From NCBI GenBank assembly GCA_043827025.1, contig JBDRPL010000029.1, positions 1-47,372 of the forward strand: a DNA stretch of 47,372 nt, in the 5' to 3' direction. How positions within the stretch are numbered: the first letter of the stretch is position 1; each line of letters starts with the position of its first letter. Made by a program: the position numbers and the translations under genes. The notes beneath the pieces are model-generated. The model did no database searches and was not told the DNA's origin. It saw only the letters and a list, made by a program, of their open reading frames with translations. This DNA comes from Candidatus Micrarchaeota archaeon. Its GTDB lineage: Archaea; Micrarchaeota; Micrarchaeia; Anstonellales; Bilamarchaeaceae. Positions 3,453 through 20,524 of this stretch are shown here, in pieces.

Positions 3453-3457
3453 AAGAT

Positions 3458-3907
3458 TCACCTGTGCTTCAGGCTCCAATCATAGGGAATGTCCTTTGTG
3501 AATGGATCCTTTCTCTGTATCTCATCGGGATCATGAGGTTCTGTTGCGCAATTTGCAACAATCGCAGGCTTTGTTCCTATGCCCTTGAATCCGTTCCATA
3601 CCATTGGCGGAATTTTCACAAGGCAGTAATTGCTTTCGCCGATAAATAGCTCCATCAGCTCTCCTTTTGTCTTTGAGCCTTTGCGATCGTCATACAATAC
3701 TAATTTGATCATTCCCTTGACAACTGCATAATTAAGCGTCATCTTCTTGTGGATGTGCCACCCCTTGATTGCAGTGGGATTGACAACTGAAAAATATATC
3801 TCTCCGAATTTCTCGAAATTCGGTGAATCTGACCGCATCATCTGCATTATCTTCCCGCGCTCATCGCATATCTGTTTCAAGGGGATAACTTCAACACCAT
3901 CAATCAT
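3458..3907 (-). CDS. RmlC-like cupin, NDP-4-keto-6-deoxyglucose 3,5-epimerase family
   Basis: DERG, IKGWHIH and VLYDDR motifs; IPPMVWNGFK; adjacent to rfbG/rfbF-like genes. Confidence 0.85.
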   Translation of the reverse strand: MIDGVEVIPLKQICDERGKIMQMMRSDSPNFEKFGEIYFSVVNPTAIKGWHIHKKMTLNYAVVKGMIKLVLYDDRKGSKTKGELMELFIGESNYCLVKIPPMVWNGFKGIGTKPAIVANCATEPHDPDEIQRKDPFTKDIPYDWSLKHR

Positions 3908-3960
3908 ATCATTACCTCGTTTATTTTTTATTATACTTTTTTTGCTCTGTTTTCAATGTT

Positions 3961-4953
3961 TCAATAGCTAAGTTTCTTCAGCCATTCAGTATACCATTCA
4001 ATTGTTTCCACAAGGCTTTCATCTATGCCCCATTTGCTCTTCCAACCAAGCACTTCCCTTGCTTTCTTGGAGCTTAGATGCTGGTCCCTTATCTCATTAA
4101 CAGCCTCGTTCTTTATCACTGGCTTGATCGTTTTATCCTTGCCCATCAACTTGAGGATTCTGCCAACCAGTTCAAGGACATTCAACTGAACTTCATTGCT
4201 AAAATTAAATGCCTCTCCATGAAAGTTCATCTGCTCTGTTTTCTGCGCCAGAACCTCATAGGCATTAACTGCATCCTTGACATAAATGTAATCGCGTATG
4301 AATTTACCATCGCTTCTTATCTCAACTGAATTATTCATGAAAACACTTTTTATTGTCCCTGGAACAATCCTGCTGAAATTCAAGTCTCCTCCCCCAAAGA
4401 AGTTGCCGCATCTTGAAATTCCAATAGGAAGCGAATATGTCTTTCCATAGCACTGTGCCAATAGGTCAGTGCAGCTTTTAGATGCATCATATGGATTCGA
4501 GCCCTGCAATGGACGATCTTCAGTATAAGGCAGTTTCTTCTGCTCGCCATAAGCTTTATCGCTTGATGCAACAACGATGCTCTTGATGTGTTTATCATGT
4601 AATCTACACGCTTCAAGCACATTCCATGTTCCTTTGATGTTGCTGTTGAAAGTTCCAAGAGGGGAATTGTTTGCAGTTCCTACAATTGTTTGCGCTCCTA
4701 GGTGAATTACAACCTCTGGAAAATATTCGTTCACCACTCTTTCAATAGTATGAAAGTCTTCAAGATCGCCATGAGCTACAGTTACGTTCTCTGAAAGACC
4801 TTCCTCAAAGAACATAGACTTCGGGACATAGTCGCGGGAAACGCACACTATATCCGCCTTCTTCTCGAGAAGGCTCTTTACAAGCCATGAGCCTATAAAA
4901 CCGGTTGAACCGGTTATCAAAACCTTTTTCCCATTAAAATAATTATCTGCCAT
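3961..4953 (-). CDS. rfbG: CDP-glucose 4,6-dehydratase-like SDR
   Basis: GSTGFIGSWL, SSDKAY, YDASK and RCGNFFGGGD motifs; directly downstream of rfbF. ATG at 4953 follows a GAGGT SD. Confidence 0.8.
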   Translation of the reverse strand: MADNYFNGKKVLITGSTGFIGSWLVKSLLEKKADIVCVSRDYVPKSMFFEEGLSENVTVAHGDLEDFHTIERVVNEYFPEVVIHLGAQTIVGTANNSPLGTFNSNIKGTWNVLEACRLHDKHIKSIVVASSDKAYGEQKKLPYTEDRPLQGSNPYDASKSCTDLLAQCYGKTYSLPIGISRCGNFFGGGDLNFSRIVPGTIKSVFMNNSVEIRSDGKFIRDYIYVKDAVNAYEVLAQKTEQMNFHGEAFNFSNEVQLNVLELVGRILKLMGKDKTIKPVIKNEAVNEIRDQHLSSKKAREVLGWKSKWGIDESLVETIEWYTEWLKKLSY

Positions 4954-4961
4954 AGTAATCT

Positions 4962-5729
4962 TTACCTCTGCAATTTCTTCCAAGGAACATTACCAGAATC
5001 CCACATCTCATTCAATTCAAGATAATCCTTATAAGTATCCATGCAATGCCAAAACCCCTCGTGTTTAAGCATTGAAAGCTGTTTTTTTGCAACAAGATTC
5101 GTGAAAGGCTCGTGTTCCAATATGCACCCTTCATCATCTGAAATATAATCAAACATCTCATTTTTGAATGCGAAGAAACCGCCATTTATATACTCGTAAA
5201 GCACTGGCTTTTCAACAAATTCATCTATGACCCCGTTCTTGCCTTCTTTTATGAGGCCGTATTTGGAATGCGGGTGAACTGCGCTTATTGTTCCAACAGT
5301 ATTTTGTTTCTTATGAAAGTCAAGCAGTTTTTTTATGTTGATGTCTGAGAGTCCATCTCCATAGGTTGCAAGGAAATTATCAGAATCAACATACTTCTGG
5401 GCCCTTTTTATCCTCGCACCAGTCTGAGTCTCGAGTCCAGTATGGGCAAAATCTATGTGCCATTTGTCCATTGGCAATGTATCTTTTGGCTTCAAGACGG
5501 TGTTTTCACTTGTGAAAAACTTCTCGATCATGTCGCCCTTGTACCCAAGGCAAAGAACAAAGTCATTGAAGCCATAATAAGAATAAATGTTCATTATATG
5601 AACAAGAATCGGTATTCCTCCAATAGGTACCATTGGCTTTGGCCTGAACTCGGTCTCCTCGTGCAGACGAGTGCCTTTTCCACCACACAGTATAACTACT
5701 TTTGGAGAGCTATCAGTCAATGATTCCAC
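4962..5729 (-). CDS. rfbF: Glucose-1-phosphate cytidylyltransferase
   Basis: LCGGKGTRL..ET..RPKPMV, TYGDG, INGGFF and GFWHCMDT..D motifs. Confidence 0.9.
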   Translation of the reverse strand: MESLTDSSPKVVILCGGKGTRLHEETEFRPKPMVPIGGIPILVHIMNIYSYYGFNDFVLCLGYKGDMIEKFFTSENTVLKPKDTLPMDKWHIDFAHTGLETQTGARIKRAQKYVDSDNFLATYGDGLSDINIKKLLDFHKKQNTVGTISAVHPHSKYGLIKEGKNGVIDEFVEKPVLYEYINGGFFAFKNEMFDYISDDEGCILEHEPFTNLVAKKQLSMLKHEGFWHCMDTYKDYLELNEMWDSGNVPWKKLQR

Positions 5730-5805: not shown

Positions 5806-7194
5806 TCACGAATAATTATCTGAAAATAAAGAATATAAGGACTTCTTGACTTTCTTGAGGAAATGGTATGTCCTTTTATGGTCCCGCAACATCACAGACA
5901 CTCTTTTATGGATGTTATGCGGATCTACCAACGAATCCCAATTCTTATGGTAATGCCTCAACTTTTCCCGATATCCAGGCTGGAATTTGAGAACTGTGTC
6001 TCTTCTTTCATTTGAAAAGTTCTTGTAAAGATCTTCATCCACCAAACCATTGGCAAAGCAATAGTCCCCAAGAACAGTACCATGATAAGGATAGAAGATA
6101 TTGACGCCACTGTAATCAGGCTTAAGCTTCCTGTTGAACTTAATAGTGTCCCACAGCATTTCTTCTGTCTCGCCAGGAACGCCGATTATGTTAATTGCAT
6201 TTGTTTCTATCCCGTATTTTTTGCAAAGGGCAAATGCAGTGACAAGCTGTTCCTCTGAGATATTACGCTGCATTATTGTGTTCCTGACATATTCGTTGCC
6301 AGACTCAACACCAAATTGGATACGTGTACAGCCCGCTTCCTTGATTCTCTTTAATGAGTCATCATCAACAACATTGACCCTTAGCAGACAGATGAACTTC
6401 TTATTGATTTCCTTCTTGTACTTCTCGCAAAATTCAACCATCCATTCGCGGTCAAGGCCAAAGGTATCATCGTAAAGATAAACCTTATTGAATGGGTATT
6501 TCTTTTCAGCATCTTTTATCTCATCTATACATGCATCCACCGGCTTGAAACGGGGCTTGTTCACTGCCATCCCATAAACTTTTGCCAATGCATGGTTGCT
6601 ACAGTAGGTGCACCTAAAAGGGCAGCCTCTTGAAAAGAAGAATGGGGCATAGCCGTTCTTTTGGACATATTCAATGAAAAAGCCGTCCCTTAATGGATGC
6701 GGGACTGCATCAAGGCTTTGTATAAGCGGATTGAGCGGATTTGTGATCACTTTGCCGTCCTTCCTGTGCGCAAGATTATTGACAATAGAATAATCCTCGC
6801 CTTTCTCAACCTTTTCCAGGAAATCTGCAAATGCGAATTCAGATTCTCCAATGAAAAATGCGTCCAGATCATCGCTTTCAGCCAAAGCTGTTGGATATAA
6901 TGTAGGGTGAACACCACCTACAACGACGATCATGTTCTTGTCAACTTCTTTTACCATCTTCGCAGCTGCCTTAACGAATTGGAACTGCGATGAGACAGAA
7001 GTGAATCCTACTACTTTTGGCTTGAAAGTCTTCAAATCCTCTACAAAAGTAGCGAAGTCCTTTTCCTCACGTATTGCAACCACTTTCACATTGTGGCCTT
7101 TGCTGAGCGCCATTGCAGCTATACTACTGAGGCCAAAAGAATACGGAGTTTCATGGAAACCATTGACATTTGTAATTACAAGCAAGACATTCAT
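5806..7194 (-). CDS. Cobalamin-binding (class B-type) radical SAM protein
   Basis: N-terminal B12-binding domain (GGVHPT, GESE), SRGCPFRCTYC CxxxCxxC motif, DDTF, GVESG, and GVPGET. Confidence 0.88.
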   Translation of the reverse strand: MNVLLVITNVNGFHETPYSFGLSSIAAMALSKGHNVKVVAIREEKDFATFVEDLKTFKPKVVGFTSVSSQFQFVKAAAKMVKEVDKNMIVVVGGVHPTLYPTALAESDDLDAFFIGESEFAFADFLEKVEKGEDYSIVNNLAHRKDGKVITNPLNPLIQSLDAVPHPLRDGFFIEYVQKNGYAPFFFSRGCPFRCTYCSNHALAKVYGMAVNKPRFKPVDACIDEIKDAEKKYPFNKVYLYDDTFGLDREWMVEFCEKYKKEINKKFICLLRVNVVDDDSLKRIKEAGCTRIQFGVESGNEYVRNTIMQRNISEEQLVTAFALCKKYGIETNAINIIGVPGETEEMLWDTIKFNRKLKPDYSGVNIFYPYHGTVLGDYCFANGLVDEDLYKNFSNERRDTVLKFQPGYREKLRHYHKNWDSLVDPHNIHKRVSVMLRDHKRTYHFLKKVKKSLYSLFSDNYS

Positions 7195-7255
7195 GCACAT
7201 CAATCTTTTTTTGGTTTGCTAGGTTTTAAAAGTTTAACTGACCTGTGGGAAACTT

Positions 7256-7281
7256 GATGTTCAGAGAAGATGTTCAGAGAA
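7256..7281. repeat. 13-bp tandem duplication (GATGTTCAGAGAA x2)
   Basis: Read directly; it spans the stop codon of the SPASM radical SAM gene. Confidence 0.85.
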
Positions 7282-8290
7282 TATACTCGCCAGTTGCAGG
7301 CATTTCCTCTTTTTGCATATTCTTGTTCTTGATAACTGTCATTCTGAATCCACATTCTGCGCATATCTTTATTCTATGAGATTCCCCTTTGAGATTGGCT
7401 TCCCTGATTTTCTGCATGACTGGACCATGCCATACTTCTTCTATAGTCTGTTTTGTCAAATCGCCAACATCCAGATGTCCGAAATAGTTGCCGTCGCAGA
7501 AAGTAACCTTTCCATTGAACCATACGCTCATGCGCTGATAAGGCTTAGAGCAGTCGAACTCTTTCGAAACAGTTAATGATTTTAGAGATTTCTCATGCCA
7601 ATCACACATATCCGTGACAGCCACTTCATCAGCAATACTCCCCCAGAATTTTATGTAACCTTCGACCTGGCCATGGCTTGTCGGAGAATCAACCATCTGA
7701 AGCCTGACAATTGGCTTTGGAGAACCTCGCTCATTTTTTATGCGCTGGAGATTCTTTATATTATTTAGAACAGAATCGAAATTTCCCCCGATTCTTATTT
7801 TTTCATAGACCTCTTTCTCATATGCGTCAACAGAACATATGATCCTGTCAAGCCCCGCATCTATGAGTTCATTGGCAACCTTCTCAGTAAGAAGGGTGCA
7901 ATTGCTGTTGAACATCACTTCGGTGATTCCTTTTGATTTCGCATAACTCACCATCTTTATGATATCCGGACATAGAAGAGGCTCGCCCCTGTAATTAAGT
8001 TTAATAGAACATAGGCCCTTCTGCGAACCTTCATCAATGATTTTCTTAAAGAAATTGAAGCTCATGTGGCCTTTTGGAGGGGGATTGAAGGATTGAAAGC
8101 AGGTTATGCATTTAAGATTGCAGACACTTGTGGATTCGATATCCATATGGATGGGAACTGCGCCAACAACGTGGTTCTTTGGGTTTTCCTCCCATTTTCT
8201 TCTGTATTCCAGATATTCCGGACTCTGCTCATATTCAGTAGGAATGTGCTTCTTGTAATGAAATGTTGGATTTATCTCTACTCTTCCCAT
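7274..8290 (-). CDS. Radical SAM protein with SPASM/twitch domain
   Basis: CNLKCITC and GEPLL motifs; C-terminal CSKPY...VTFC...CAEC cysteines. Confidence 0.88.
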   Translation of the reverse strand: MGRVEINPTFHYKKHIPTEYEQSPEYLEYRRKWEENPKNHVVGAVPIHMDIESTSVCNLKCITCFQSFNPPPKGHMSFNFFKKIIDEGSQKGLCSIKLNYRGEPLLCPDIIKMVSYAKSKGITEVMFNSNCTLLTEKVANELIDAGLDRIICSVDAYEKEVYEKIRIGGNFDSVLNNIKNLQRIKNERGSPKPIVRLQMVDSPTSHGQVEGYIKFWGSIADEVAVTDMCDWHEKSLKSLTVSKEFDCSKPYQRMSVWFNGKVTFCDGNYFGHLDVGDLTKQTIEEVWHGPVMQKIREANLKGESHRIKICAECGFRMTVIKNKNMQKEEMPATGEYIL

Positions 8291-8311
8291 AAATATCACC
8301 GATTGAGCCCA

Positions 8312-9097
8312 TCACTGGGATTCTATGTGCTTCTTCAGCCTTTCGATTCTTGGATTGTCCTCATCACAAATCTTCATGTAGTGGTGCTTCTTATTCAAGA
8401 GCCAAAGATGCTCGAACTTTATAGCCTTTTGAATCCCTTGCAGCATGTTTTCCTTGCTGTCATGTATATTTGAAAATGTGACCTTCCGCGTCTCATAAAA
8501 ATCAAGCAGCTTCTTTTCAACAAGATATTTTATGAATTCTATTGACCTCGGAGAAAGTCCTCCGCCCATTCCGCACCTGAGGCCTTTTTTCTTGCAGCTT
8601 TGCATTATCTTTTCACAAACTTCCAGGACAATTTTTGATTCGACATCTTCGATATGCATGGAATGGCTTAGGTCGCTTCGCCCAACTGTCACTATCTTCA
8701 AATGCGAGATATCGTTCTTGTTGAGAATGTCTTCTGTGTTGTTGCTGCCAGTAAGCGTCTCGATATTAATACCAATGTCCAAATACTCCACATCTTCCTT
8801 TGGAACCATGTCCTTGACAGCATCCAAATATTTTTTGACAGAATAGGCAGTTTCGACCATCGGAGCAATAATACAGTCTGCACCTATTTGAAGAGCATGG
8901 AACATGTCAGATTTTGCTTCCGCACCTCCAATCTTAATCACCAGGCCAACCCCGCCCCGAGTTGCAATGTCCCTAAGCCTCACCACTTCATCTATGCGGG
9001 CGCCTTCTGCCTCGAATTCTGCTTTCACCTTCAGGACTCCGTAGTTCTGCTTCAGGTCTTTTAGAAGCTCCACCATCTCTCGCTCAAGTTTATTCAT
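8312..9097 (-). CDS. HpcH/HpaI aldolase/citrate-lyase family protein
   Basis: KAEFEAEG, KIGGAEA..D, APMVET, NIET and GRSDL (metal-binding E...D) motifs. Confidence 0.72.
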   Translation of the reverse strand: MNKLEREMVELLKDLKQNYGVLKVKAEFEAEGARIDEVVRLRDIATRGGVGLVIKIGGAEAKSDMFHALQIGADCIIAPMVETAYSVKKYLDAVKDMVPKEDVEYLDIGINIETLTGSNNTEDILNKNDISHLKIVTVGRSDLSHSMHIEDVESKIVLEVCEKIMQSCKKKGLRCGMGGGLSPRSIEFIKYLVEKKLLDFYETRKVTFSNIHDSKENMLQGIQKAIKFEHLWLLNKKHHYMKICDEDNPRIERLKKHIESQ

Positions 9098-9227
9098 AAA
9101 AATCCCATCTTATATCCTAAAGGAATGTCGAAATGATTATCACATACTTGCACATAAAAGTTAAAAAATCTACGTAATCCCGTGCCAAAAATACGTCTTT
9201 TGCCAGATAAATCGAACTGCCATCGAG

Positions 9228-9304
9228 TAAATTTTTAAACCATTCTCCCACATAGTTAATACTAAAAATACCGAATCTACTGAATCAACATTAAAACAGG
9301 TGAA
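9228..9304 (+). promoter_or_regulatory. Putative archaeal TATA box (TTTTTAAA) and AGGTGA SD in a divergent intergenic region
   Basis: TTTTTAAA at about 9232-9239; AGGTGA just before ATG 9308. Confidence 0.5.
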
Positions 9305-9307
9305 AGA

Positions 9308-11143
9308 ATGATACTTGCATTATTAATTGGAAGAAAGGGCAGCGAAGGATTTCCGGGAAAGAACACTGAAAACGTGCTTGGAAAACCACTCATGGCTTAT
9401 CCCCTAGAAGCTGCCAAGAATGCAAAAAGCGTTGATGCTGTCTGTGTCTCAACAGATGATGATGTAATAATGGGGATCGGCAGAAAATACGGCGCTGAAA
9501 TACTGGTACGCCCTCCTGAGCTCTGCACAAGCCATGCTGTTGCAGATGACGTCCTTGTTCATGCATACAACCACTACAAACAGAAATATGAGAAAGAAGG
9601 GAAGGAGATAGAATTGGTGGTTTTCCTATTCTGCAATGCACCGCTGGTGAATTCAGAAAGGATAGAGCAGGCAATAGACATACTTAGAAAGCACCCTGAA
9701 TATGATTCAGTGGCAAGTGTTTCGAAATACAATATGTGGAGCCCTCTCAGGGCAAGGAAAATCGGCGAGGATGGATTGCTGAAGCCATTCGTGCCTTTTG
9801 AATTATTCGGCGACCCAAAGAAACTCACATGCAACCGCGACACCCAGGGAGATGTCTGGTTCTATGACGTCACACTCTGTGTGATAAGACCAAAAAATAT
9901 TGAGAATATAGAAAAAGGGATGACTGCCCAAAGATGGCTTGGTCAAAAGATATACCCCTTGAAACAAGAGGGCGGATTGGACATTGATTATGAATGGGAA
10001 TTTCCACAGATGAGATACTGGCTCAAGAAAAAATGGAGAGAAAATAATAAGGGAAATGTGCTTCCAAAGAAGAACCTTGATGGTGTTGTGCGTGTTGAAA
10101 ACGCCCCGGAAACAAGGGCGGGGTTCCTAAGGCTTGACAAGAATGAAAATACCCTGGGATTGGATGAAAAATTCCTTGACGAAGTAAAGGCAGGGATAAC
10201 TGCGGATTTCATAAATATGTATCCAGAGGTTTACCAAACCTATGAAAAATTGAGCAAATGGCTGAACATAGGCAATGACCAGATATATGTGACTGCAGGT
10301 TCTGACGCAGGCATCAAAGCAGCATTCGAGGCATTTGTTGATGAAGGCGATGAAGTAGTCGTACTTGACCCGACATATGCAATGTATTATGTTTACTCAA
10401 ACATATTTGGAGCAAAGCTCAAGAAAGTTCCTTTCAGCGAAAACATGGAATTGGAAAAGGATGCAGTAATAAAAGCAATAACAAACAAGACAAGACTCAT
10501 ATGCATAGCGAACCCGAATGCACCTACTGGAACCCTTATGGAAAAGGATGAGCTTGTAAGACTGATAAGGTATGCAGAAGAAAGAGGCATAGTCGTTTTG
10601 CTTGACGAAGCATATTATTTATTCAATACAGAAACTATGATCGACCGTGTGAACGAATTCAAGAACCTGATGGTCACAAGATCCTTCACAAAGGGATTCG
10701 GCCTCGGATGCGCAAGGCTTGGGTTTGCTGTGTCCAACAAAGAAATTACACTGCTGCTCAAGAAATTCAGGCCAATGTACGAAGTGAATTCATTCGCTGT
10801 GCTTCTTGGCAATGCAATATTGGATAATATGGACATGGTCGAAAGGAACATAAAGAAATTCCATGAAGGCAAGAAATACCTGGAAGATGCGCTTGATGAG
10901 ATGAGGGTGCACTATTTCAAGAGCCATTCGAACTTCATATTGATAGATGTGGGAAGTCCCGAGGTAGCGAAAAAAATTGATGAGGCACTTGTGAAAAGAA
11001 AGGTACTCATAAGAACAGGGTTCGGTACAGTTCCGCTCAACAGGTGCGTAAGGGCAAGTATAGGTACCAAGGAGCAGATGGAAACATTCTTCAAGAACTT
11101 CAAGGAAGTTGTTGCAGAACTGGGGCTGAAAATAACCAAATGA
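9308..11143 (+). CDS. Fusion: NeuA/KdsB-like cytidylyltransferase + HisC-like class I/II PLP enzyme
   Basis: N-terminal GRKGSEGFPGKN, STDD, RPPEL and DIDYEWE motifs. C-terminal RLDKNEN, YP, NPNAPTG, DEAY and RSFTKGFGLGCARLG motifs. Confidence 0.87.
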   Translation: MILALLIGRKGSEGFPGKNTENVLGKPLMAYPLEAAKNAKSVDAVCVSTDDDVIMGIGRKYGAEILVRPPELCTSHAVADDVLVHAYNHYKQKYEKEGKEIELVVFLFCNAPLVNSERIEQAIDILRKHPEYDSVASVSKYNMWSPLRARKIGEDGLLKPFVPFELFGDPKKLTCNRDTQGDVWFYDVTLCVIRPKNIENIEKGMTAQRWLGQKIYPLKQEGGLDIDYEWEFPQMRYWLKKKWRENNKGNVLPKKNLDGVVRVENAPETRAGFLRLDKNENTLGLDEKFLDEVKAGITADFINMYPEVYQTYEKLSKWLNIGNDQIYVTAGSDAGIKAAFEAFVDEGDEVVVLDPTYAMYYVYSNIFGAKLKKVPFSENMELEKDAVIKAITNKTRLICIANPNAPTGTLMEKDELVRLIRYAEERGIVVLLDEAYYLFNTETMIDRVNEFKNLMVTRSFTKGFGLGCARLGFAVSNKEITLLLKKFRPMYEVNSFAVLLGNAILDNMDMVERNIKKFHEGKKYLEDALDEMRVHYFKSHSNFILIDVGSPEVAKKIDEALVKRKVLIRTGFGTVPLNRCVRASIGTKEQMETFFKNFKEVVAELGLKITK

Positions 11144-11160
11144 GGATCATGGGATTAAAC

Positions 11161-11802
11161 ATGATCAAACTCATCTTTTTCGACCTTGATGGCACTCTCC
11201 TTGAGTCAACAGGAATAAAGACAGATTCTTTCATAGAACTTTTCAGAGATGAAAAGGAAGGCGATCTCAATCAGATTGCAGATTATGTGAAAAAAAATCC
11301 TGGGACCTACAGATATGAAAAATTCGGGCATATTTATAGTAAAATATTGGGAAGATCTCTTGATGAAAAGACAAAACAAGTGCTTTCTGAAAGGTTTTCA
11401 GAACTGGTCCTTGATAAGATATTAAAGTGCCCTTTTGTGAAAGGCACTGAAGAGTTCATGGAAAAATATTCACATTCAGTGAAACTATTTCTCCTTTCAG
11501 CAACCCCTGCGAACGAGCTCGAAACCATCATAAGAAAAAAAGATATCAAAAAATATTTCATAAAAACATATGGCGCTCCGTTGAAAAAGGCTGAGATAAT
11601 GATCCAAACGCTAAAGCAGGAACAAGTAGATAAAGAGGGGGCCGTATTCGTAGGAGACAGTATGGCTGATTTTGATGAAGCAAAAAAAGCAGGCATAAGA
11701 TTCATAGGAAGAGAACTGATCAGAGAAGCATTTCCAAAAGGAACGGAAACAATAAAGGATATTAATGAGCTTGACGAACTAATTACTAACTCTCAGAGTT
11801 GA
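11161..11802 (+). CDS. HAD-superfamily phosphatase/hydrolase
   Basis: FDLDGTL (motif I), LSA (II), K (III) and VGDS.AD (IV). Start is 11161 or the overlapping ATG at 11140. Confidence 0.88.
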   Translation: MIKLIFFDLDGTLLESTGIKTDSFIELFRDEKEGDLNQIADYVKKNPGTYRYEKFGHIYSKILGRSLDEKTKQVLSERFSELVLDKILKCPFVKGTEEFMEKYSHSVKLFLLSATPANELETIIRKKDIKKYFIKTYGAPLKKAEIMIQTLKQEQVDKEGAVFVGDSMADFDEAKKAGIRFIGRELIREAFPKGTETIKDINELDELITNSQS

Positions 11803-11806
11803 TCCC

Positions 11807-13633
11807 ATGGCTCAGGAAAAAAATAAATGCACAATATGTTCGACTTCCAGAAATGCAATTGCTGAAATAACAAAGAAAAATGAGAATTTCAAATGGGCAT
11901 ATTTAGGGGAAGATGTTTCAAAAGCGATAGCAATTGAAAACGCACTTGGTAAATCTGGAGAAAAAATAGATACCGGAGGCATGCTTCAGGAGATTGCAAG
12001 ATCGCTTAAATGGAAATATGTTGAGTACATAGGAAAGATGAGCCTAAAGAAAAAATCGCTCATCTGGTGGGGAAGCGCGCTTTCGGAAAAGAGCCCCTAT
12101 TCCTCAAAGACATTCCTTCATTCGTGCTACCTCATGGTTTATTTGGAAATCGTCAAAAAATACAGCGATATGCCACTGGTTTTCTTTGTTGAGGCAGGAT
12201 CACTGCGAAAAGCAATGAAAGAAAATGCACCTTCTGGAATAGATGTGGAATGCAAGGAAAGCAGTGTTGGGCATATTAAAGAAAGCGTTGGCAATATGTT
12301 GAATTGCATATTGAGGCGGGGATACTTCCTGACAAACAACATCTACAAAACAATCCTTGCAAAATGGATATACCAGATGCAGAACAAGGTTGAGAAAAAT
12401 GTGCCTTATGAGGTCCTGCATACATTTGCTGCGAAAAGGTCATTCGACGCCCAGAATAAAAAATTCAAAGAAAACTTTTACGGCGACCTTCCAGAATATG
12501 CAAAGAGAACTAGCAAAAAATACATAATCTATCCTTCCATATGGGGCGCGTCATATAAGACTGCCATGGATGTATTGAAACTTCAGGAAAGAATACTCAT
12601 CCATCACGCATTTCTCTCAATATTCGACATATTCAATGTTTTCTTCAGCACAATGAAAAGGCCAAAATCAGATTGCCCCAAGTTCGAAGGAATGGACATT
12701 GCTGCAATAATAGATGAAGATGTAAGAAAAGACTATGGAGGCATAAGGATGCCCTCTGACATTCTGGTATATCACGCAATAAAAAACATGAAGAAAAACA
12801 GGATTCTGATTTCCAACCTCATTGAACCCTATGAAAACCATACAAATGAAAAAGTAGCAAGGATAGCTGTGAGGGAATTCTATCCTGATGCAAGGATAAC
12901 TGGATACCAACATTCTACATTCTCAAGCATGCACCTTGAATACTTGTTTTCAAAAGAGGAGTTTGCAGTTCTTCCTTTCCCTGATGAGATAATAACAAGC
13001 GGAGATCAGGACAAGAGAACATTTACTGAATGGGGCTATCCAATTGACAGGCTTGTGAGGGGGGGTGCAATAAGATACGCGGATGTGCTTCAACTGGAGA
13101 CAAACAATAGAGCACTGAACCCGGACAAGCCAACTGTGCTTGTTACAACTTCGATAAACAAGCCAGATGCACTTGAACTGGTATGGAAGACAATAAAAGC
13201 ATTTGAAAATGGGGAAAAATATCGCATCATAATAAAGTGCCACCCTTATATGCCATTCAAGAAGATAATAAAAGAGCTTGGCATTCCAGTTCCTGGACAC
13301 TTTGAAATCAGTGATACTCCTATACCAAAACTTCTTGACGAAACAGATGTCCTGGTCTACACCAGCTCGACAACCTGCCTGGAAGCAATTGCAAAGGGAG
13401 TTCCCATAATCTACGTTGGCTCAGACCTGATGATTGAACTGAATCCACTTGACTTCGACCCCGATGTAGCATTCTGCGCAAAGAAACCAGAGGACATCGT
13501 AAAGGGAGTGGAATATTGGGTGGGAATGAAAAAAGAGGAACTGGATAAAAGAAGAAAGGATTGGAAAGGGACTGTTCAGAAAATGTTCTGCAAGGTTGAT
13601 GACAAGACCTATTCCTTATTTTTCAGGCAATGA
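11807..13633 (+). CDS. Large surface-carbohydrate biosynthesis protein with a GT-B-like C-terminus (resembles the LIC13510-type family); candidate ulosonate transferase
   Basis: YEN...EK, GYQHS, GAIRY, IKCHP and SSTTCLEAIAKG motifs. Confidence 0.6.
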   Translation: MAQEKNKCTICSTSRNAIAEITKKNENFKWAYLGEDVSKAIAIENALGKSGEKIDTGGMLQEIARSLKWKYVEYIGKMSLKKKSLIWWGSALSEKSPYSSKTFLHSCYLMVYLEIVKKYSDMPLVFFVEAGSLRKAMKENAPSGIDVECKESSVGHIKESVGNMLNCILRRGYFLTNNIYKTILAKWIYQMQNKVEKNVPYEVLHTFAAKRSFDAQNKKFKENFYGDLPEYAKRTSKKYIIYPSIWGASYKTAMDVLKLQERILIHHAFLSIFDIFNVFFSTMKRPKSDCPKFEGMDIAAIIDEDVRKDYGGIRMPSDILVYHAIKNMKKNRILISNLIEPYENHTNEKVARIAVREFYPDARITGYQHSTFSSMHLEYLFSKEEFAVLPFPDEIITSGDQDKRTFTEWGYPIDRLVRGGAIRYADVLQLETNNRALNPDKPTVLVTTSINKPDALELVWKTIKAFENGEKYRIIIKCHPYMPFKKIIKELGIPVPGHFEISDTPIPKLLDETDVLVYTSSTTCLEAIAKGVPIIYVGSDLMIELNPLDFDPDVAFCAKKPEDIVKGVEYWVGMKKEELDKRRKDWKGTVQKMFCKVDDKTYSLFFRQ

Positions 13634-15507
13634 ATTTTTTTGTAAACCAGCTTGGCAGCCCTTTCTGCACTCTTTCCATCATCAAGATGTGTCCCGTATC
13701 TTTTCAGGAACTCGTGATTGTTTAGATCAACATCATAGCCAGGGACGGAACCAGTATCCAAAAAAGAGTTGATTGCCTTTGACATTTCTTCAACAGTCTT
13801 GAAGCAATATGCTCTTTTCTTTAAAAGAATTTCTGCATCCTTGTCAAGTCTGCAATGTTGCGTAGTTGTGAATACGGGCTTGTTCGTAGTGATTGCCTGC
13901 AATAATGTAGTCGAAGGAAAATCAATTACAAAAACACCTGCATATGGCGCCAGATCATCAAATGTAGATTCTGCTTGTATGAATCTTAAGTCGCTGAATT
14001 CCTTTTCTTCTGCATATGCCACTATAGGGCTTGACCTATAGCCGATGTTAGGATGCAATTTAACAACAACAGGCATTTTCCTTTGTTTTCCAATGGTTTC
14101 CAGAACATGTTTTTGCGATCTCCAGAAAAGATTGTCTGACCACATTGGAGGAAATGAAACATAAAGGTGGTTATGGTAAAGGTTAGTTGAAGCATAGAGC
14201 AGGAAGCTTTTTTTCTTCTCTTTACCTTGTAACTTTTTTGAGGATAATTTGTCAAGGTTGCTTGAGCCTATTGGAACCAGCTCTGTGCCTGACTGCTTTG
14301 CCTGCTTTCCATATTTTTCAACAACACCTTCCCCAAAAACAAGATGAATTCCTGATTTCACAAAATCAGAATAGGGGATCATTGGCTGGTCAAGATAACC
14401 ATAATTCCCATGCTGCCAACTGAATACAGGAATGCCGATATCCAAGGCAGCTTTTGCAAATGATTTTGCAATTGGATTCGAAAAACCAGATGTGAGCATA
14501 GCTCCTATGCCATTCCTCTTTGAAAAAGAATTTGAAAGCAGGTAAGAATTCATGCATGCCTTTGCAACCCTATTAAACAAGAAAAGCAATCTTGGCCCTG
14601 CAATTGGCAGAACGTCGATGTTTTCGAAAATGAACAGACTGCAGAACTCCGAATTAGACCTAAGGCAGTCCATGATCTTTTTCGGATCAGGAGGTACATC
14701 TGCAGTTCCAATTGCCATTTCATTGACTGCCCAGTATTCAACATCATCTGAAAGCTCCAAAATCGGAAAGATTCCTGAATCCTTGAAATTGCGCATGCAG
14801 GAACCCCAATTGTATTTGCCTCCAAAAAAAATGACAGGGAATTTGTCCATTGACTTTTCGCTCAGGTCGAGGCGCAACGTTTCTGCCTGACTATGTGATT
14901 TCAGCAATGGCTTCACCTTGTTGCGTATGAAACACATTGCCCTTTTGAAAAAGCCAATTCCTGTAGGCGTCTTGATTGAACCAAGAATGACTGGCTTGAA
15001 GCTCCATTGGTCTAATGAAAGAAGAATCGAATAGATAGATTCACTGTTGTCAAAAAGAACCTGGAAAGCTTCCTGGGAAAAACCGATTAATCGGGATGGC
15101 TGACCATAGAATAGAATTTCATCCGGATTCTCAGCACAGATTATCTTGGAAAGCTGAAATGTCCTAAGAAGTATAGAATCATAGAGAAGTTTTAGGTGGA
15201 AAAAACCGAATGCAGCGGGAGTTATGCCCTTCTTCTTGAATTCAGGAGATTGTTCGTGAATCAAATCATCGATTATGCTGCAGATCCTTTCTACTTTTTT
15301 ATAATTCTCCATTCCAAACTGATAAAGCTCTTCAGCACCATAATAATCTTCAGGGATCTTGTATTTGAAATTGTTCTTGTCCAGCTCGTGCATTGCAAAA
15401 GGAGACAGAGCAATCAGAGTTGTCAAGCTGGCATTGTGTTTTTTCAGAAAGTCAATAACCTGTGCTTCGTTCTCTAGGAACACCAAAACCTTTTTTGCAG
15501 CATCCAT
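13609..15507 (-). CDS. Large GT-B-like polysaccharide biosynthesis protein; candidate transferase
   Basis: WQHG, VFGEG, VKLHP and STTLLQA...KPV motifs; 632-aa ORF. Confidence 0.6.
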   Translation of the reverse strand: MDAAKKVLVFLENEAQVIDFLKKHNASLTTLIALSPFAMHELDKNNFKYKIPEDYYGAEELYQFGMENYKKVERICSIIDDLIHEQSPEFKKKGITPAAFGFFHLKLLYDSILLRTFQLSKIICAENPDEILFYGQPSRLIGFSQEAFQVLFDNSESIYSILLSLDQWSFKPVILGSIKTPTGIGFFKRAMCFIRNKVKPLLKSHSQAETLRLDLSEKSMDKFPVIFFGGKYNWGSCMRNFKDSGIFPILELSDDVEYWAVNEMAIGTADVPPDPKKIMDCLRSNSEFCSLFIFENIDVLPIAGPRLLFLFNRVAKACMNSYLLSNSFSKRNGIGAMLTSGFSNPIAKSFAKAALDIGIPVFSWQHGNYGYLDQPMIPYSDFVKSGIHLVFGEGVVEKYGKQAKQSGTELVPIGSSNLDKLSSKKLQGKEKKKSFLLYASTNLYHNHLYVSFPPMWSDNLFWRSQKHVLETIGKQRKMPVVVKLHPNIGYRSSPIVAYAEEKEFSDLRFIQAESTFDDLAPYAGVFVIDFPSTTLLQAITTNKPVFTTTQHCRLDKDAEILLKKRAYCFKTVEEMSKAINSFLDTGSVPGYDVDLNNHEFLKRYGTHLDDGKSAERAAKLVYKKIHCLKNKE

Positions 15508-15724: not shown

Positions 15725-15793
15725 GACGAAATCCGTCTGAGAAGTAGGTATCTTTAAAAGGACTTGGAGGCACTTATTCCTTCAGGTCTTTCT

Positions 15794-16954
15794 ATGGTAG
15801 ATGCATTTAGATTCAAGTTAAGAACTGACGCCAGATTCGGCGTAGGAATGGCTGAGAAGCTTGGCGAATTGTTGAAAGAAAAGGGCTACTCAAACCCAAT
15901 AATTTTGATTGATACTGGAGTAATCAACCTTCCTTCGATAAAGAAAATTGTAGAGGAAACAGGCAAAACATGCAAAGTCCTAAAGGTATTCGAGAACAAG
16001 GTTCCAGAGCCCACATATGGATCATTGGATGAGGCAAGAACGCACTTTGAAGGTTTGAAACCAGATTGTGTTGTTGGAATAGGAGGCGGAAGCACCCTTG
16101 ACCTTGCAAAAGGAATAGCAACACTTATGACCAATCCTGGGAAGGGTCTCTTGTACAGAGGATTCAATCTTGTAAAAACACTTCCTTTGCCAGTGATTGC
16201 AATACCAACAACCGCAGGAACAGGAAGCGAAGCAACATTCAATGCAGTTTTCACAGAGAAATCAGAGAAAAAGAAAATGGGCATCAATACAGAATATAAT
16301 TTCCCAGTACTCGCAATACTTGACCCTGTTCTGATAACGAGCTGTCCAAAGAAAGTGGCTGTTGGATCAGGAATGGATGCAATAGTTCACACATTGGAAA
16401 GCTTCGTAGCAAATGCATCTACGCCAACATCAAGGATGTATGCAAAGCAAGCATTTGCACTTTTGTTCAATAATCTTGAAAAGGCAGTGAAAGACCCTAA
16501 AGATATTGAAGCGCAATCAAAGGTTTTGCTTGGAAGCCATTATGCAGGCATCTCACTCGTTAATTCAGGTGCAGGGCCTGCAGGAGCAATGTCTTACCCA
16601 TTGGGAACTTATTTCGATGTTCCACATGGGATAGCTGGCGCGATGTTCATCCCTCATGTGGTAAAGATGAATGTGGATAAGGGATGCAATACCTACAACC
16701 AATTATACGATCTTATTGATGGCGCAGACCATGGGCTTAGTGAGGAAGAAAAGGCAAATGAGTTCTCAAAAGAATTCACAAGGTTCTGCAATGCACTGGA
16801 TGTGCCAAAGAAGTTGAATGTCTTCGGAGTGAAGAAAAGCGATAAAGAGCTACTTCAGCGCGAGGCTGCTGTATTGAAAGGAGCATTCGGCATGAACCCA
16901 GTGCCATTCGGGGAAAAAGAGGTTCAGGAGCTCTTGGACATGTTGATTGATTAG
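15794..16954 (+). CDS. Iron-containing (group III) alcohol dehydrogenase, KdnB-like
   Basis: GGGSTLDLAK, LMTNPG..LYRG.NLV, PTTAGTGSEAT, GMDAIVH.LES and PHG motifs; adjacent to a KdnA-like gene. Confidence 0.85.
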   Translation: MVDAFRFKLRTDARFGVGMAEKLGELLKEKGYSNPIILIDTGVINLPSIKKIVEETGKTCKVLKVFENKVPEPTYGSLDEARTHFEGLKPDCVVGIGGGSTLDLAKGIATLMTNPGKGLLYRGFNLVKTLPLPVIAIPTTAGTGSEATFNAVFTEKSEKKKMGINTEYNFPVLAILDPVLITSCPKKVAVGSGMDAIVHTLESFVANASTPTSRMYAKQAFALLFNNLEKAVKDPKDIEAQSKVLLGSHYAGISLVNSGAGPAGAMSYPLGTYFDVPHGIAGAMFIPHVVKMNVDKGCNTYNQLYDLIDGADHGLSEEEKANEFSKEFTRFCNALDVPKKLNVFGVKKSDKELLQREAAVLKGAFGMNPVPFGEKEVQELLDMLID

Positions 16955-16986
16955 AGGAAATTGAAGAAAAACAAGGGAGTGATGCT

Positions 16987-18162
16987 ATGCCAGGATTCGA
17001 ATTGATTGGGAAGGAAGAAAAAGAAGCTGTTGACGAGATATTCGAAAAAAGCAATGGAGTGCTTTACAGATATGCACTCAATGATAGGAGAAATAACATT
17101 TTCAGAGTTGATGAGTTCGAAAAACAACTCCAGCACAAAGTAGGGGCAAAACACTGCCTTTGCGTATGCAATGGAACTGCAGCACTCAAACTTTGCCTTA
17201 TAGGCGCTGGAGTAAAACCTGGAGATGAAGTCATAACGCAAAGCTTCACATTCATTGCTACTGTGGAAGCAATACTTGAACTTGGAGCAAAGCCAATCAT
17301 CACAGAAGTTGATAAATCTCTTAACATGGATCCTGAGGACCTGAGGAAAAAAATCACAAAGAAGACAAAGGCAATAATACCTGTTCATATGGCAGGAGTT
17401 GCTGCAAAGATGGATGAGATAATGGCGATCGCAAAGGAACACAATCTTCCTGTTGTCGAAGATAGTGCACAGGCACTTGGCGCCACATACAAAGGAAAGA
17501 TGCTCGGAACCATAGGCATCGCAGGCATTTACAGCCTTGACATTGGCAAAGTCATAACAACAGGAGAGGGTGGAGTTGTAGTAACAAATGATGAAAAAAT
17601 ATTTCTCAAGGCGAGGGAATACTCGGACCATGGTCATGAGCAGAACCCAAAGGTGCCAAGAGGCGAAGACACCAGAACAATCTGGGGCTTTAATTACAAG
17701 ATAACCGAGCTCCAGGGAGCAATAGGACAGGCACAGCTTAAGAAATTGGATTATGTCCTTGAACAGCAGAGAAAAAACAAAAGGATGATCAAAGAGGGAA
17801 TAAAAAGCGCACCTGGAATCGAATTCAGGGAAATCCCGAATGGAGAGGGAGATGCAGGAGATACATTGATTTTTTTCGTAAAAGACAGAGAAACCGCATC
17901 AAAATTTGCAAAGAAGCTCTCTGAAAGAAAAATGGGCACTAAAAATCTGCCTGATGCAATAAACTGGCATTATGCAGGCACATGGACCCAAATATTCCAT
18001 GATTACCCTGAATACAAGGGAAAGAACCTTGAAGAAGTGTGGGAGCAGTCGACCAGCTATCTTAGGAGAGCAATTGCACTTCCTGTAATGGTGAAGATGG
18101 CTGATGAAAGGATAAATGAGATAATATCAGCAGTCATGGAGATTGCAAACGAGTTGAAATAA
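16987..18162 (+). CDS. DegT/DnrJ-family PLP aminotransferase, KdnA-like
   Basis: MPGFELIG.EEK N-terminus, EDSAQ, SLDIGKVITTGEGG, SDHGH, FREIP..EGD and NWHY. These match my recollection of Shewanella KdnA. Confidence 0.85.
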   Translation: MPGFELIGKEEKEAVDEIFEKSNGVLYRYALNDRRNNIFRVDEFEKQLQHKVGAKHCLCVCNGTAALKLCLIGAGVKPGDEVITQSFTFIATVEAILELGAKPIITEVDKSLNMDPEDLRKKITKKTKAIIPVHMAGVAAKMDEIMAIAKEHNLPVVEDSAQALGATYKGKMLGTIGIAGIYSLDIGKVITTGEGGVVVTNDEKIFLKAREYSDHGHEQNPKVPRGEDTRTIWGFNYKITELQGAIGQAQLKKLDYVLEQQRKNKRMIKEGIKSAPGIEFREIPNGEGDAGDTLIFFVKDRETASKFAKKLSERKMGTKNLPDAINWHYAGTWTQIFHDYPEYKGKNLEEVWEQSTSYLRRAIALPVMVKMADERINEIISAVMEIANELK

Positions 18163-18163
18163 C

Positions 18164-18817
18164 ATGGCAGATTATGACAGCACCTCGAGGGAAAAACCAT
18201 ACGTACTTGCAATAATTCCTGCAAGAGGAGGAAGCAAGGGCATCCCTAGGAAGAACATGAAGATGATTGCCGGGAAGCCATTGATAGCCTGGAGCATAGG
18301 ATCAGCAAAGGAATCCAAACTATTGGACAAGTTTGTGGTTTCAACAGAAGACAAGGAAATTGCTGATGTTTCAAGAAAGTATGGCGCAGAGGTTGTTGAC
18401 AGGCCAAAAGAACTGGCAAGCGACACTGCAATGACACTGCCAGTATTGCAGCAAGTTCTCCAGAAGATAGATGCAGATATTGTTGTGCTTCTCCAACCGA
18501 CCTCTCCGATGAGGAGCAAAGGCCTCATAGACAGATGCATAAAACAATTCCTTGAAACCAAAGTAGAATCACTGGCAACGGGATTCATCTGCAAATTCAT
18601 GGAATACGGCAGTTACAGCAAACGAAGGCAGGAATTGAAGGGATTCTTCTATGATGATGGAAATGTATATGTCATAGATGCAAACCTGATACGAAATGGA
18701 AAAATGGTCGGTGAAAAGAAAGGGCATTGTTTCACAACAAGAGAAGAAAATACAGAAATAGATGACGAATTCGATTTCTGGCTTGTTGAAAAGGTGCTTC
18801 AGGAGCGAATGAAATAG
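18164..18817 (+). CDS. neuA: CMP-nonulosonate synthetase
   Basis: IPARGGSKGIPRKN, LQPTSPMR, RRQ and EIDDEFD motifs. Confidence 0.92.
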   Translation: MADYDSTSREKPYVLAIIPARGGSKGIPRKNMKMIAGKPLIAWSIGSAKESKLLDKFVVSTEDKEIADVSRKYGAEVVDRPKELASDTAMTLPVLQQVLQKIDADIVVLLQPTSPMRSKGLIDRCIKQFLETKVESLATGFICKFMEYGSYSKRRQELKGFFYDDGNVYVIDANLIRNGKMVGEKKGHCFTTREENTEIDDEFDFWLVEKVLQERMK

Positions 18818-18827
18818 GAGGATTAAT

Positions 18828-19880
18828 ATGCATAAAGAAACTATACTGGTTGGAAAAAAGAAGGTCGGGCCAGGACAGCCATGCTTCATAATCGCAGAAG
18901 CTGGAGTGAATCATAATGGCGATATGAAATTGGCAAAAGAGCTTGCACTTGTAGCAAAGCAGGCAGGCGCTGACGTTGTAAAATTCCAGACATTTAATCC
19001 TGACAAACTTGTCACGAAAAAGGCAGGCAAGGCAGAATACCAAAAAGAGACGACAGATGCAGCTGAAAGCCAGCTTGCAATGCTTAAAAAACTGGCACTT
19101 GGTGAAAAAGATTTCGAGGAATTGAAGAGGTATTGCGACAAGATAGGCATCATGTTCCTTTCGACCCCTTTTGACAGCGAAAGCGTCACGATAGTCAACA
19201 AGCTTTGCCCTATAATCAAAATTTCGTCTACTGACACCAACAACTATCCATTCATAGAACAGATAGCAAGGCTAGGGAAACCGATAATGCTGTCAACAGG
19301 AATGTCAACAATGGACGAGGTAAAAAAGGCTGTTGAAGCAATAAGGAAAACAGGGAATGACAAGATAATTTTATTGCAATGCATAAGTTCATATCCAACT
19401 CCGCTTGAATACGCAAATGTGGCAGCAATGCTCGAGCTAAGGAAAGCAGATGTTGAGATTGTCGGGTATTCGGACCATACTGTCGGTAATTTCGCAATAT
19501 TCACAGCAGTTGCCCTTGGGGCCAATGTTGTTGAGAAACACTTTACCTTGGACAAGAATATGGAAGGACCTGACCATAAGGCATCTGCAGACCCGAAAGA
19601 GCTTGAAGAACTGATAAAAGGGATAAGAAGCATAGAAAAGGCCCTTGGAAGCGGAATTAAGGCACCTGTAAAATGCGAAATGGAGAATATACCTATTGTC
19701 AGGAAAAGGCTTGTTGCTGCAGTTGACATAAAAAACGGGCATGTGATTACGCGCGAAATGGTCGAGATAAAAAGATCGAAAAACGGTGCAGAGCCAGGAC
19801 AACTAAACGAAGTTATAGGAAAGAAGGCAACAAGAGATATAAGCATAGATGAAGGAATAGAAAAAGAGGATGTGAAATGA
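18828..19880 (+). CDS. neuB: Nonulosonate synthase (NeuB/LegI family) with C-terminal SAF domain
   Basis: AEAGVNHNGD, KFQT, STPFD, SDHT and EKHFTLD...GPDH motifs. Confidence 0.93.
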   Translation: MHKETILVGKKKVGPGQPCFIIAEAGVNHNGDMKLAKELALVAKQAGADVVKFQTFNPDKLVTKKAGKAEYQKETTDAAESQLAMLKKLALGEKDFEELKRYCDKIGIMFLSTPFDSESVTIVNKLCPIIKISSTDTNNYPFIEQIARLGKPIMLSTGMSTMDEVKKAVEAIRKTGNDKIILLQCISSYPTPLEYANVAAMLELRKADVEIVGYSDHTVGNFAIFTAVALGANVVEKHFTLDKNMEGPDHKASADPKELEELIKGIRSIEKALGSGIKAPVKCEMENIPIVRKRLVAAVDIKNGHVITREMVEIKRSKNGAEPGQLNEVIGKKATRDISIDEGIEKEDVK

Positions 19881-20524
19881 AAAAACTCCTGATAATAGGC
19901 GCTGGAGACCAGCCCAAAATAATCATTGATGCCATAGAATCCAACCCAAACTACAAGGACATCAGCATAAAGGGACTCATGGATGTTGAGGGCCGAAAAG
20001 AAAATGTTGGAAAAGAGATACTTGGGCATCGAATAGTAGGAACGCTTGACAAACTTGCAGAATACTTATGCGACTTCTATGTGATAGCTGTTGGCGATCC
20101 TGCAAAAAGAAAGGAGATCGATGCAAAGGTGGCCGAAACAGGAAAGAAAACTGAGGCACTTACGATAATCCACAAAAGCGCAATAGTCTCGAAGCACGTG
20201 AAGATAGGGAGTGGAAGTATGATCTCTGCTGGCGCAATAATACTTCCGAATGCGATATTAGGAAGGCACTGCATAATCAACACAAGTGCAACGATCGACC
20301 ATGACTGCGAGCTTGGAGATTACGTTAACATATCTCCAGGTGCGAAGATATCTGGAAATGTAAAGATAGGTGAGTGTGCAACTATAGGAACAGGCGCAAC
20401 AATAATCGACGGCGTGACAATTGGAAAGAATGCGATCATAGGCGCAGGCGCATCCGTGATATCTGATATACCTGCAGATTCAACTGCAGTCGGTGTTCCG
20501 GCAAAGGTAATCAAAAAGGGTTGA
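19877..20524 (+). CDS. neuD: NeuD/PglD/LegH-family hexapeptide sugar acetyltransferase
   Basis: IIGAG N-terminus, INTSATIDHDC, left-handed beta-helix repeats, and GVPAK. Confidence 0.88.
   Translation: MKKLLIIGAGDQPKIIIDAIESNPNYKDISIKGLMDVEGRKENVGKEILGHRIVGTLDKLAEYLCDFYVIAVGDPAKRKEIDAKVAETGKKTEALTIIHKSAIVSKHVKIGSGSMISAGAIILPNAILGRHCIINTSATIDHDCELGDYVNISPGAKISGNVKIGECATIGTGATIIDGVTIGKNAIIGAGASVISDIPADSTAVGVPAKVIKKG

Follow-up and report, generated by a model that had tools for sequence, protein, structure and literature searches.

A rare aldolase–cytidylyltransferase hybrid locus in a Micrarchaeota glycan island: a plausible CMP-ulosonate pathway with a different synthase

The contig JBDRPL010000029.1 (C29; 47,372 nucleotides, hereafter the window) of the Candidatus Micrarchaeota archaeon assembly GCA_043827025.1 (G000; 36 contigs, 1.33 Mb, 91.6% complete) is as a whole a surface-glycan island with two NeuB modules, a WbuX/HisH/HisF set, a flippase and many transferases, at a flat GC content of 38–45%. 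Here, we focus on positions 8312–13633 and the adjoining minus-strand genes, where an aldolase-like gene is divergently paired with a gene encoding a cytidylyltransferase–aminotransferase fusion. Our tentative reading, held with slightly less than even confidence, is that this locus is a hybrid, composed of an uncharacterised cytidylyltransferase cassette devoid of its 2-hydroxyacid dehydrogenase and extended SDR pair, and of an aldolase from branched-sugar clusters. Such a hybrid would be a rare variant, plausibly a pathway to a cytidine monophosphate (CMP)-activated ulosonate with a different synthase, the chemistry being predicted from sequence. No described pathway of this kind was found in the literature searched, which consisted mainly of open-access text; passages of PMC12247030 and PMC12395582 contributed no decisive information.

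The four genes listed in the initial annotation are real, intact and correctly placed, as judged from open reading frames (ORFs) and Pfam/NCBIfam profiles. The first (8312–9097, minus strand) codes for a 261-residue TIM-barrel aldolase-like protein of the HpcH/pyruvate-kinase superfamily (PF03328 HpcH_HpaI, 35.7 bits for a cut-off of 25), which belongs to a subfamily with KAEFEAEG and ETRK motifs and is proposed here to be the source of a 3-deoxy-2-ulosonate phosphate. Separated from it by 210 bp, the fusion gene (9308–11143, plus strand; 611 residues in one open frame) joins a NeuA-like cytidylyltransferase domain (9308–10045; PF02348 CTP_transf_3 on residues 7–142), placed in a divergent sub-clade of family A2, to a fold-I pyridoxal phosphate (PLP) domain (10046–11143; PF00155 and TIGR01141 on residues 270–601) with the PLP motifs DEAY and SFTK. 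On the same strand follow a HAD phosphatase with a DLDGT motif (11140–11802; PF13419) and a TIGR04326-like putative CMP-ulosonate glycosyltransferase (11807–13633; 608 residues). The HAD ORF is listed as 11044–11802, and its likely start is the ATG at 11140, which overlaps the fusion stop (ATGA), or that at 11161. The aldolase gene heads a minus-strand run, with a radical SAM/SPASM enzyme, proposed to be a hydroxyl oxidase, only 12 bp downstream (7274–8299; PF04055 and PF13186), then a B12-dependent radical SAM enzyme, possibly a methyltransferase (5806–7203), and finally glucose-1-phosphate cytidylyltransferase, cytidine diphosphate (CDP)-glucose 4,6-dehydratase, a cupin epimerase and an RmlD–GT2 fusion (1611–5729). 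Parts of the stretch are matched at 95–100% identity by short contigs from other runs, one of which spans the aldolase–radical SAM junction (8174–8760). None of the listed records from other runs spans the 210-bp divergent gap, a promoter scan of this gap remained at chance level, and no RNA holder is listed.

With regard to the aldolase-like protein, the structure model (predicted local distance difference test score 95.7) has as its best fold matches 1dxe (Z 18.6), 3qz6 (18.4), pyruvate kinase (17.6) and CLYBL (17.2), all at 13–19% identity. Foldseek and VIA-align likewise place HpcH/HpaI/GarL enzymes on top (Z 18.1–18.6, root-mean-square deviation 2.6–2.7, about 195 aligned residues), with pyruvate kinase within 1 Z unit. 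The search for homologues retrieved 2067 proteins. In this family, E113 and D142, the metal ligands after strands 5 and 6, do not vary and align with the IET and GPTDL motifs of SwHKA, and seven further basic residues (K25, R34, K89, R140, R204, K205 and K236) are also invariant, which would suit phosphorylated substrates. The family alignment (A1) further reveals an invariant K55 at a strand end and lacks a conserved His; Lys55 presumably occupies the site where the catalytic Arg of class II HpaI enzymes is expected, and the His of the His–Asp pair would appear to be absent. The window protein retains every family-invariant residue. We propose a metal-dependent enzyme predicted to use pyruvate or phosphoenolpyruvate (PEP) and to yield a phosphorylated 2-keto acid. 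Its identity as a synthase of 3-deoxy-D-arabino-heptulosonate 7-phosphate (DAHP) of known type was rejected. An aldolase–HAD fusion exists in the family (P0241); longer forms accounted for two matches among 8000 scored, none fused to a cytidylyltransferase, which is weak evidence.

The family contexts of this aldolase were analysed in the best 80 of 544 genome loci and the best 80 of at least 153 viral loci, the genome loci having been found by an alignment-based scan, as a single-protein scan of genome contigs gave no match. An acetolactate-synthase-like thiamine enzyme lies beside the aldolase in 66 of the genome loci and 75 of the viral ones. Other genome neighbours are DegT/DdhC (37/80), glucose-1-phosphate cytidylyltransferase (36/80), a 3-dehydroquinate (DHQ)-synthase-like lyase (28/80, usually with an SDR alongside, in 24; 56/80 in viruses) and a HAD (27/80), lyase and HAD never occurring together (0/80). 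This alternation suggests that the aldolase product bears a terminal phosphate, which would be lost by elimination or by hydrolysis, as expected of a DAHP-like compound. The neighbour set as a whole corresponds to the architecture of acyl-branched (caryophyllose-type) sugar clusters. According to PMC9306805, the thiamine enzymes of such clusters accept 4-hydroxy-2-oxo acids, and the cluster aldolase, called a member of the aldolase/citrate-lyase family in the case of MMAR_2331, is proposed as their maker; passages of PMC5706390 report that caryophyllose is lost when MMAR_2331 is lost.

The aldolase is encoded on at least 153 viral contigs, the best 80 of which (L196–L275) carry a compact set with an SDR, the DHQ-synthase-like lyase, the thiamine enzyme, a nucleoside diphosphate (NDP)-sugar dehydratase and DegT. 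Viruses thus appear, from gene content, to carry a caryophyllose-type branched-sugar pathway, of which our literature search found no description. In 11 viral loci, a 131-residue protein without a Pfam match replaces the SDR and the lyase. The plasmid collection held three aldolase records and the phage collection none, and a close cytidylyltransferase was found in neither. In the related genome G258 (L188:10117–14628), the aldolase and thiamine genes are in pieces, reflecting either decay or an assembly error.

The fusion leads to another family context. Its N-terminal domain scores 64.9 bits with PF02348 (cut-off 22.6) and falls below all curated NCBIfam equivalog cut-offs, including that of TIGR03584 for PseF (88 of 205.7 bits); its closest solved structures are NeuA/PseF enzymes. 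R9, K18, D225 and D227 align with Arg12, Lys21, Asp209 and Asp211 of 1eyr, the roles of which are given in passages of PMC2901514, and R177 corresponds to Arg165 by motif only. Family A2 is tight, with 57–66% identity. The C-terminal domain is HisC/CobD-like rather than DegT-like. A housekeeping HisC was rejected, because the TIGR01141 score (265.9 bits) is below the cut-off of 276.55, the domain groups with cassette aminotransferases, and HisC-like genes exist elsewhere in the genome (one on C30). The existence of a full-length, 609-residue relative (P0244, 68% identity) argues that the fusion is not an artefact; among the best 150 representatives, no cluster other than that of P0121 showed this domain order.

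The cassette around this cytidylyltransferase was studied in 81 loci, namely the best 80 of 568 metagenome matches and one viral locus, many of them short and 21 with full flanks; the family is also present in 13 of 301 Omnitrophota genomes searched. The cytidylyltransferase is accompanied by a 2-hydroxyacid dehydrogenase in 39 loci, an extended SDR in 31, a B12 radical SAM enzyme in 19 and a HAD in 17, along with methyltransferases, a cyclase and TIGR04326-like transferases. Of the 21 full-flank loci, 19 encode the 2-hydroxyacid dehydrogenase and likewise 19 the extended SDR. Two either-or pairs were observed: radical SAM/SPASM (38/81) or a GFO dehydrogenase (19/81), and a HisC-like aminotransferase (25/81) or an SDR (20/81), with no locus having both members of a pair. 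They fit a scheme in which a hydroxyl is oxidised and the resulting ketone is then aminated or reduced again, a logic proposed for ElaABC in PMC13656337. We propose that this widespread, uncharacterised cassette activates and tailors a 2-keto sugar acid. Two variants without the 2-hydroxyacid dehydrogenase (L110 and L158) possess instead a 965-residue PEP-utiliser/PPDK-like/cytidylyltransferase protein and a nucleoside triphosphate (NTP) transferase.

By sequence relationship, the radical SAM/SPASM enzyme, PLP domain, HAD and transferase of the window are assigned to this cassette. The first clusters with the gene of the 38 cassette loci (46% identity to L087), and the PLP domain scores 435 bits with the cassette aminotransferase profile, compared with 373–463 in other cassette loci (46% to L137). 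The HAD shares 47% identity with L099 and 44% with L118, at 233 bits versus 257–304 in the cassette. The transferase, described initially as an orphan, has counterparts in other loci of this cassette (44% identity to L099); it reaches 103 bits with TIGR04326 (cut-off 250) and harbours the HP motif (H479–P480) that is invariant in its family (alignment A4). The best PDB match of the transferase profile is KpsC (E-value 1.3e-5), over about 80 positions only and through the HP motif only. The B12 enzyme has a weaker cassette link, with 31–34% identity to cassette B12 enzymes and 313 bits versus 580–749 for clear members.

Each half of the locus is without its usual partner, as indicated by what the assembly lacks. 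In the 36 contigs, the acetolactate-synthase-like thiamine enzyme, a DHQ-synthase-like gene, DAHP synthase and KdsA were not found; tblastn gave zero matches for the thiamine enzyme and only 27–32% DegT matches for DdhC, and orthologues of the aldolase-cluster SDR and GT2 were not found either. Similarly, no orthologues of the cassette 2-hydroxyacid dehydrogenase and extended SDR were found in G000, where the best scores were 280 and 153 bits, in unrelated places, versus 385–437 and 404–456 in other cassette loci (one of these, L278, is the same as a sequence used in training). The genome has Rpe-, transketolase- and transaldolase-like genes, which could supply erythrose 4-phosphate.

The pairing appears to recur in a second lineage, as judged from contig sizes. 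The nearest aldolase relatives, P0002 and P0243, are 61–62% identical to the window protein and 93% to each other, and the nearest fusion relatives, P0244 and P0121, 67–68% and 94%, respectively; both pairs stem from Logan contigs of 15723 and 3888 bases. Single chance size matches amounted to 2 of 14042 pairs from two match lists, one of them at 3888 itself and involving a protein of different origin, and a double size match between the two top clusters by chance is very unlikely. For P0003, no size-matched contig was found among 10 further proteins. In quick trees, the window with P0002 and P0003 (aldolase) and the window with P0121 and P0244 (fusion) form separate clades (SH-aLRT 100 and 99) on long stems (0.39 and 0.64). 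Furthermore, the window and P0244 fusions have each changed at 25 of 115 near-invariant cytidylyltransferase columns, 16 of them in common, compared with a median of 3 and a maximum of 11 among 76 members (L142 was omitted from this count, its called ORF being aberrant). The shared loop changes L78V, G79A and E80D align with Ser81-Ser82-Ile83 of Neisseria meningitidis NeuA, in which Ser82 contacts the docked sugar according to passages of PMC2901514. Such changes in a sugar-binding loop suggest that the cytidylyltransferase substrate may be altered.

From these genes, folds, family contexts and assembly absences we infer a series of reactions, including their order, the aldehyde and the chain length, that could, on a tentative estimate not far short of even, lead to an amino-3-deoxy-ulosonate, probably a heptulosonate. 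With pyruvate or PEP as donor and an aldose phosphate as acceptor, most likely erythrose 4-phosphate, the aldolase would form a 3-deoxy-hept-2-ulosonate 7-phosphate, from which the HAD would remove the phosphate. The N-terminal domain of the fusion would then form the CMP-ulosonate, the radical SAM/SPASM enzyme would turn one hydroxyl into a ketone, and the fused PLP domain would transaminate it. The B12 enzyme may add a methyl group, and the TIGR04326-like enzyme would move the sugar onto a surface glycan. The amino group suggested initially as a possibility is kept, its route most likely passing through the adjacent radical SAM oxidase, a gene outside the limits first drawn. A broader proposal, which we consider rather unlikely, is that the KAEFEAEG/ETRK subfamily constitutes a ulosonate-phosphate synthase class that has gone unrecognised, analogous to DAHP synthase but built on an HpcH/pyruvate-kinase barrel, possibly PEP-using and giving a D-ribo rather than a D-arabino product. 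It would serve branched sugars in hundreds of genomes and many viruses, and here feed a CMP-activated, radically oxidised and aminated heptulosonate, a surface sugar of seven carbons resembling sialic acid, without NeuB, KdsA or DAHP synthase. The D-ribo isomer would be expected from the structure of caryophyllose.

A number of observations weigh against the hybrid reading. As the test of a common module, the initial annotation had proposed that the GR.GS.GFPGKN cytidylyltransferase and the KAEFEAEG aldolase should show conserved co-occurrence, and none was seen: the cytidylyltransferase family is absent from the 80 genome and 80 viral aldolase loci (best scores 27–45 bits versus 431), and the aldolase family is absent from the 81 cytidylyltransferase loci and from the 13 whole Omnitrophota genomes possessing the cytidylyltransferase. 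Only 2 of 50 whole-searched aldolase genomes have both, on another contig in one and about 21 kb away in the other. This zero co-occurrence led us to reject a family-wide module. The low identity of the aldolase to any solved aldolase and the near-tie in fold with pyruvate kinase and CitE-type lyases count on the same side, as does a 36% relative in Ilyobacter polytropus (L081:15001–20069) that stands in a catabolic context with aconitase, 2-hydroxyacid dehydrogenase, PrpF and a carboxylate transporter. The many short loci inflate the mutual exclusions within the cassette, the assembly is not complete, the contig breaks off within the glycan island, and the second-lineage pairing is based on contig sizes, not on its DNA. 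The long branches could result from relaxed selection or general divergence, as radical SAM (10/76) and HAD (8/39) likewise depart more than family members do. In the phylum of the organism, 4 of 400 other genomes have the aldolase and none the cytidylyltransferase family, and 1 of 98 genomes of its own family has the aldolase, so that a hybrid-bearing relative was not found among those genomes. The aldolase route to a CMP-ulosonate therefore fails for the two families at large, and stays plausible for a small sub-lineage because of the probable second lineage, the long-stemmed clades of the paired enzymes, the phosphorylated 2-keto-acid context, the KpsC match and the lack of a thiamine partner.

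The main rival, which we regard as possible though doubtful, holds that the cassette tailors a NeuB-made nonulosonic acid in the manner of ElaABC, by activating, oxidising and re-reducing or, here, aminating it, and that the nearby aldolase serves some other purpose. Of 12 Omnitrophota cassette regions, 10 have NeuB at a distance of no more than 20 kb, two NeuB genes are present in the window, the 13 cassette genomes do without the aldolase, and the structural proximity of the cytidylyltransferase domain to NeuA/PseF points the same way. In addition, the scheme of ElaB with the GFO protein ElaA and the SDR ElaC, as outlined in passages of PMC13656337, matches the radical-SAM-or-GFO and SDR-or-aminotransferase alternations. 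However, only 3 of the 21 metagenome loci with full flanks have NeuB within 10 kb, and several of the 21 give the impression of being self-contained. As noted initially, both NeuB genes of the window (18828 and 35415) have a CTP_transf_3 gene of their own, adjoining or within 2 kb (18164 and 33557). The aldolase–fusion pairing in a second lineage and the loss of the dehydrogenase pair would also be left unexplained.

It is improbable, in our estimation, that the aldolase instead belongs, with the CDP-glucose genes, to a branched-sugar cluster of the yersiniose/caryophyllose type, whether as a remnant or as a functional component, the thiamine enzyme being lost or unassembled. The thiamine context is the family default and is also present in the related genomes G143, G258 and G122. 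Moreover, transcription of the aldolase gene leads away from the fusion, in the direction of CDP-glucose genes resembling those of aldolase–thiamine clusters, the window dehydratase being 61–67% identical to those of aldolase clusters in the related genomes G143, G122 and G342, so that the aldolase may have come in with them; the contig end and the 91.6% completeness leave room for missing genes. On the other hand, the thiamine enzyme, DdhC, the lyase, the SDR and the cluster GT2 orthologue were not found in the 36 contigs, the CDP-glucose genes with the cupin and RmlD already make a complete 6-deoxyhexose set, and two cassette-type radical SAM genes stand between them and an aldolase that has kept its family-invariant residues. 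Least probable is that the PLP domain and HAD produce a substituent for attachment to a carboxyl group, such as a small amino alcohol of the serinol- or ethanolamine-phosphate type, instead of a sugar amine, for which we take Campylobacter jejuni capsule enzymes Cj1435–Cj1438 as the model: the domain is of the HisC/CobD type, whose enzymes act on phosphorylated substrates, and a HAD comes after it, but in the cassette the aminotransferase and an SDR strictly replace each other, which fits a common keto-sugar intermediate, and profile scans recognised no amide ligase in the block.

In other respects, a second candidate aldolase-to-CMP-ulosonate module was noticed in L189:8622–12088, L190:105–3435, L266:9986–13774 and L269:9944–12870. 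Here, a divergent aldolase sub-branch, before or after an LdpA-like Fe-S protein, adjoins another NeuA- or KdsB-like cytidylyltransferase, with a HAD in L189 and L190. These cytidylyltransferases differ from that of the window (22–27% identity or 35–45 bits), and their aldolases are not its nearest relatives; a grouping of the window aldolase clade with L189 and L190 was neither recovered nor rejected (p-AU 0.35). The aldolase tree took in 25 of 82 viral and archaeal loci.

Beyond this locus, a second putative ulosonate transferase gene, BFO_1060-like (13609–15507, minus strand), is convergent with the TIGR04326-like gene; it scores 40 bits with NF046086, below the cut-off, and shares 40% identity with cassette locus L118. 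At 15764–24497, an iron-containing alcohol dehydrogenase (Fe-ADH) and a DegT aminotransferase (15764–18162), a pair that we take to be KdnB/KdnA-like, precede NeuA, NeuB, NeuD, a formyltransferase, NeuC and a PIG-L deacetylase, and this gene content suggests the production of an N-formyl, extra-amino nonulosonic acid. The same pair adjoins NeuA/NeuB in L279. The acetamidino set WbuX, HisH and HisF (27804–33494) is interleaved with two opposite-strand NHL-repeat proteins, and a pseudaminic-acid-type module (33557–39073) comprises PseB, a cupin, PseC, NeuB, a PseH-like acetyltransferase, a GT2 and a KdsB/SpsF-like cytidylyltransferase.

The CMP-ulosonate donors known so far derive from KdsA or NeuB. 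Should the aldolase supply the cytidylyltransferase, it would represent a third entry route to CMP-ulosonates and probably a new surface sugar. The hybrid would also offer a handle on the substrate of a widespread cassette, one assayable enzyme possibly replacing its upstream genes, and on how the aldolase acts in the making of caryophyllose-type sugars. Under the rival explanations, the locus would reflect ordinary reshuffling within a mosaic glycan island.

Among known systems, the closest to the aldolase half are the acyl-branched sugar pathways of erwiniose (ErwE/ErwI) and caryophyllose (MMAR_2332/MMAR_2331), in which, according to PMC9306805, a gene of the aldolase/citrate-lyase family is proposed to supply a 4-hydroxy-2-oxo acid; the window aldolase family shares with them the thiamine enzyme, CDP-glucose gene and GT2 context. 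Unlike these pathways, the window has no thiamine enzyme, and instead of undergoing decarboxylation the keto acid would remain intact for activation with CMP and transfer, the likeness to MMAR_2331 being one of description and context. The class II pyruvate aldolases HpaI/HpcH, GarL, YfaU and SwHKA have in common with the window protein the fold (Z 18) and the acidic ligands, but identity is only 13–19% and the extra invariant basic residues are particular to the window family. The routes to CMP-3-deoxy-D-manno-octulosonate (Kdo; KdsA, KdsC, KdsB and WaaA/KpsC) and CMP-nonulosonates (NeuB and NeuA) follow the same order of synthase, HAD, cytidylyltransferase and HP-motif GT-B transferase, whereas the synthase here would be an HpcH/pyruvate-kinase-type barrel, not KdsA or NeuB, and the cytidylyltransferase forms a separate family. 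As in the proposed route, KdnB/KdnA of the Kdo8N pathway, and likewise BtrN/BtrR, oxidise a sugar hydroxyl before transamination, the former through an Fe-ADH and a DegT enzyme and the latter on a free aminocyclitol. Finally, the C8 epimerisation of CMP-Leg5,7Ac2 by ElaABC, as described in PMC13656337, likewise combines a cytidylyltransferase, an oxidase and a second redox step on the CMP-ulosonate, the oxidase in the window being a radical SAM/SPASM protein and the second step falling to a PLP enzyme.

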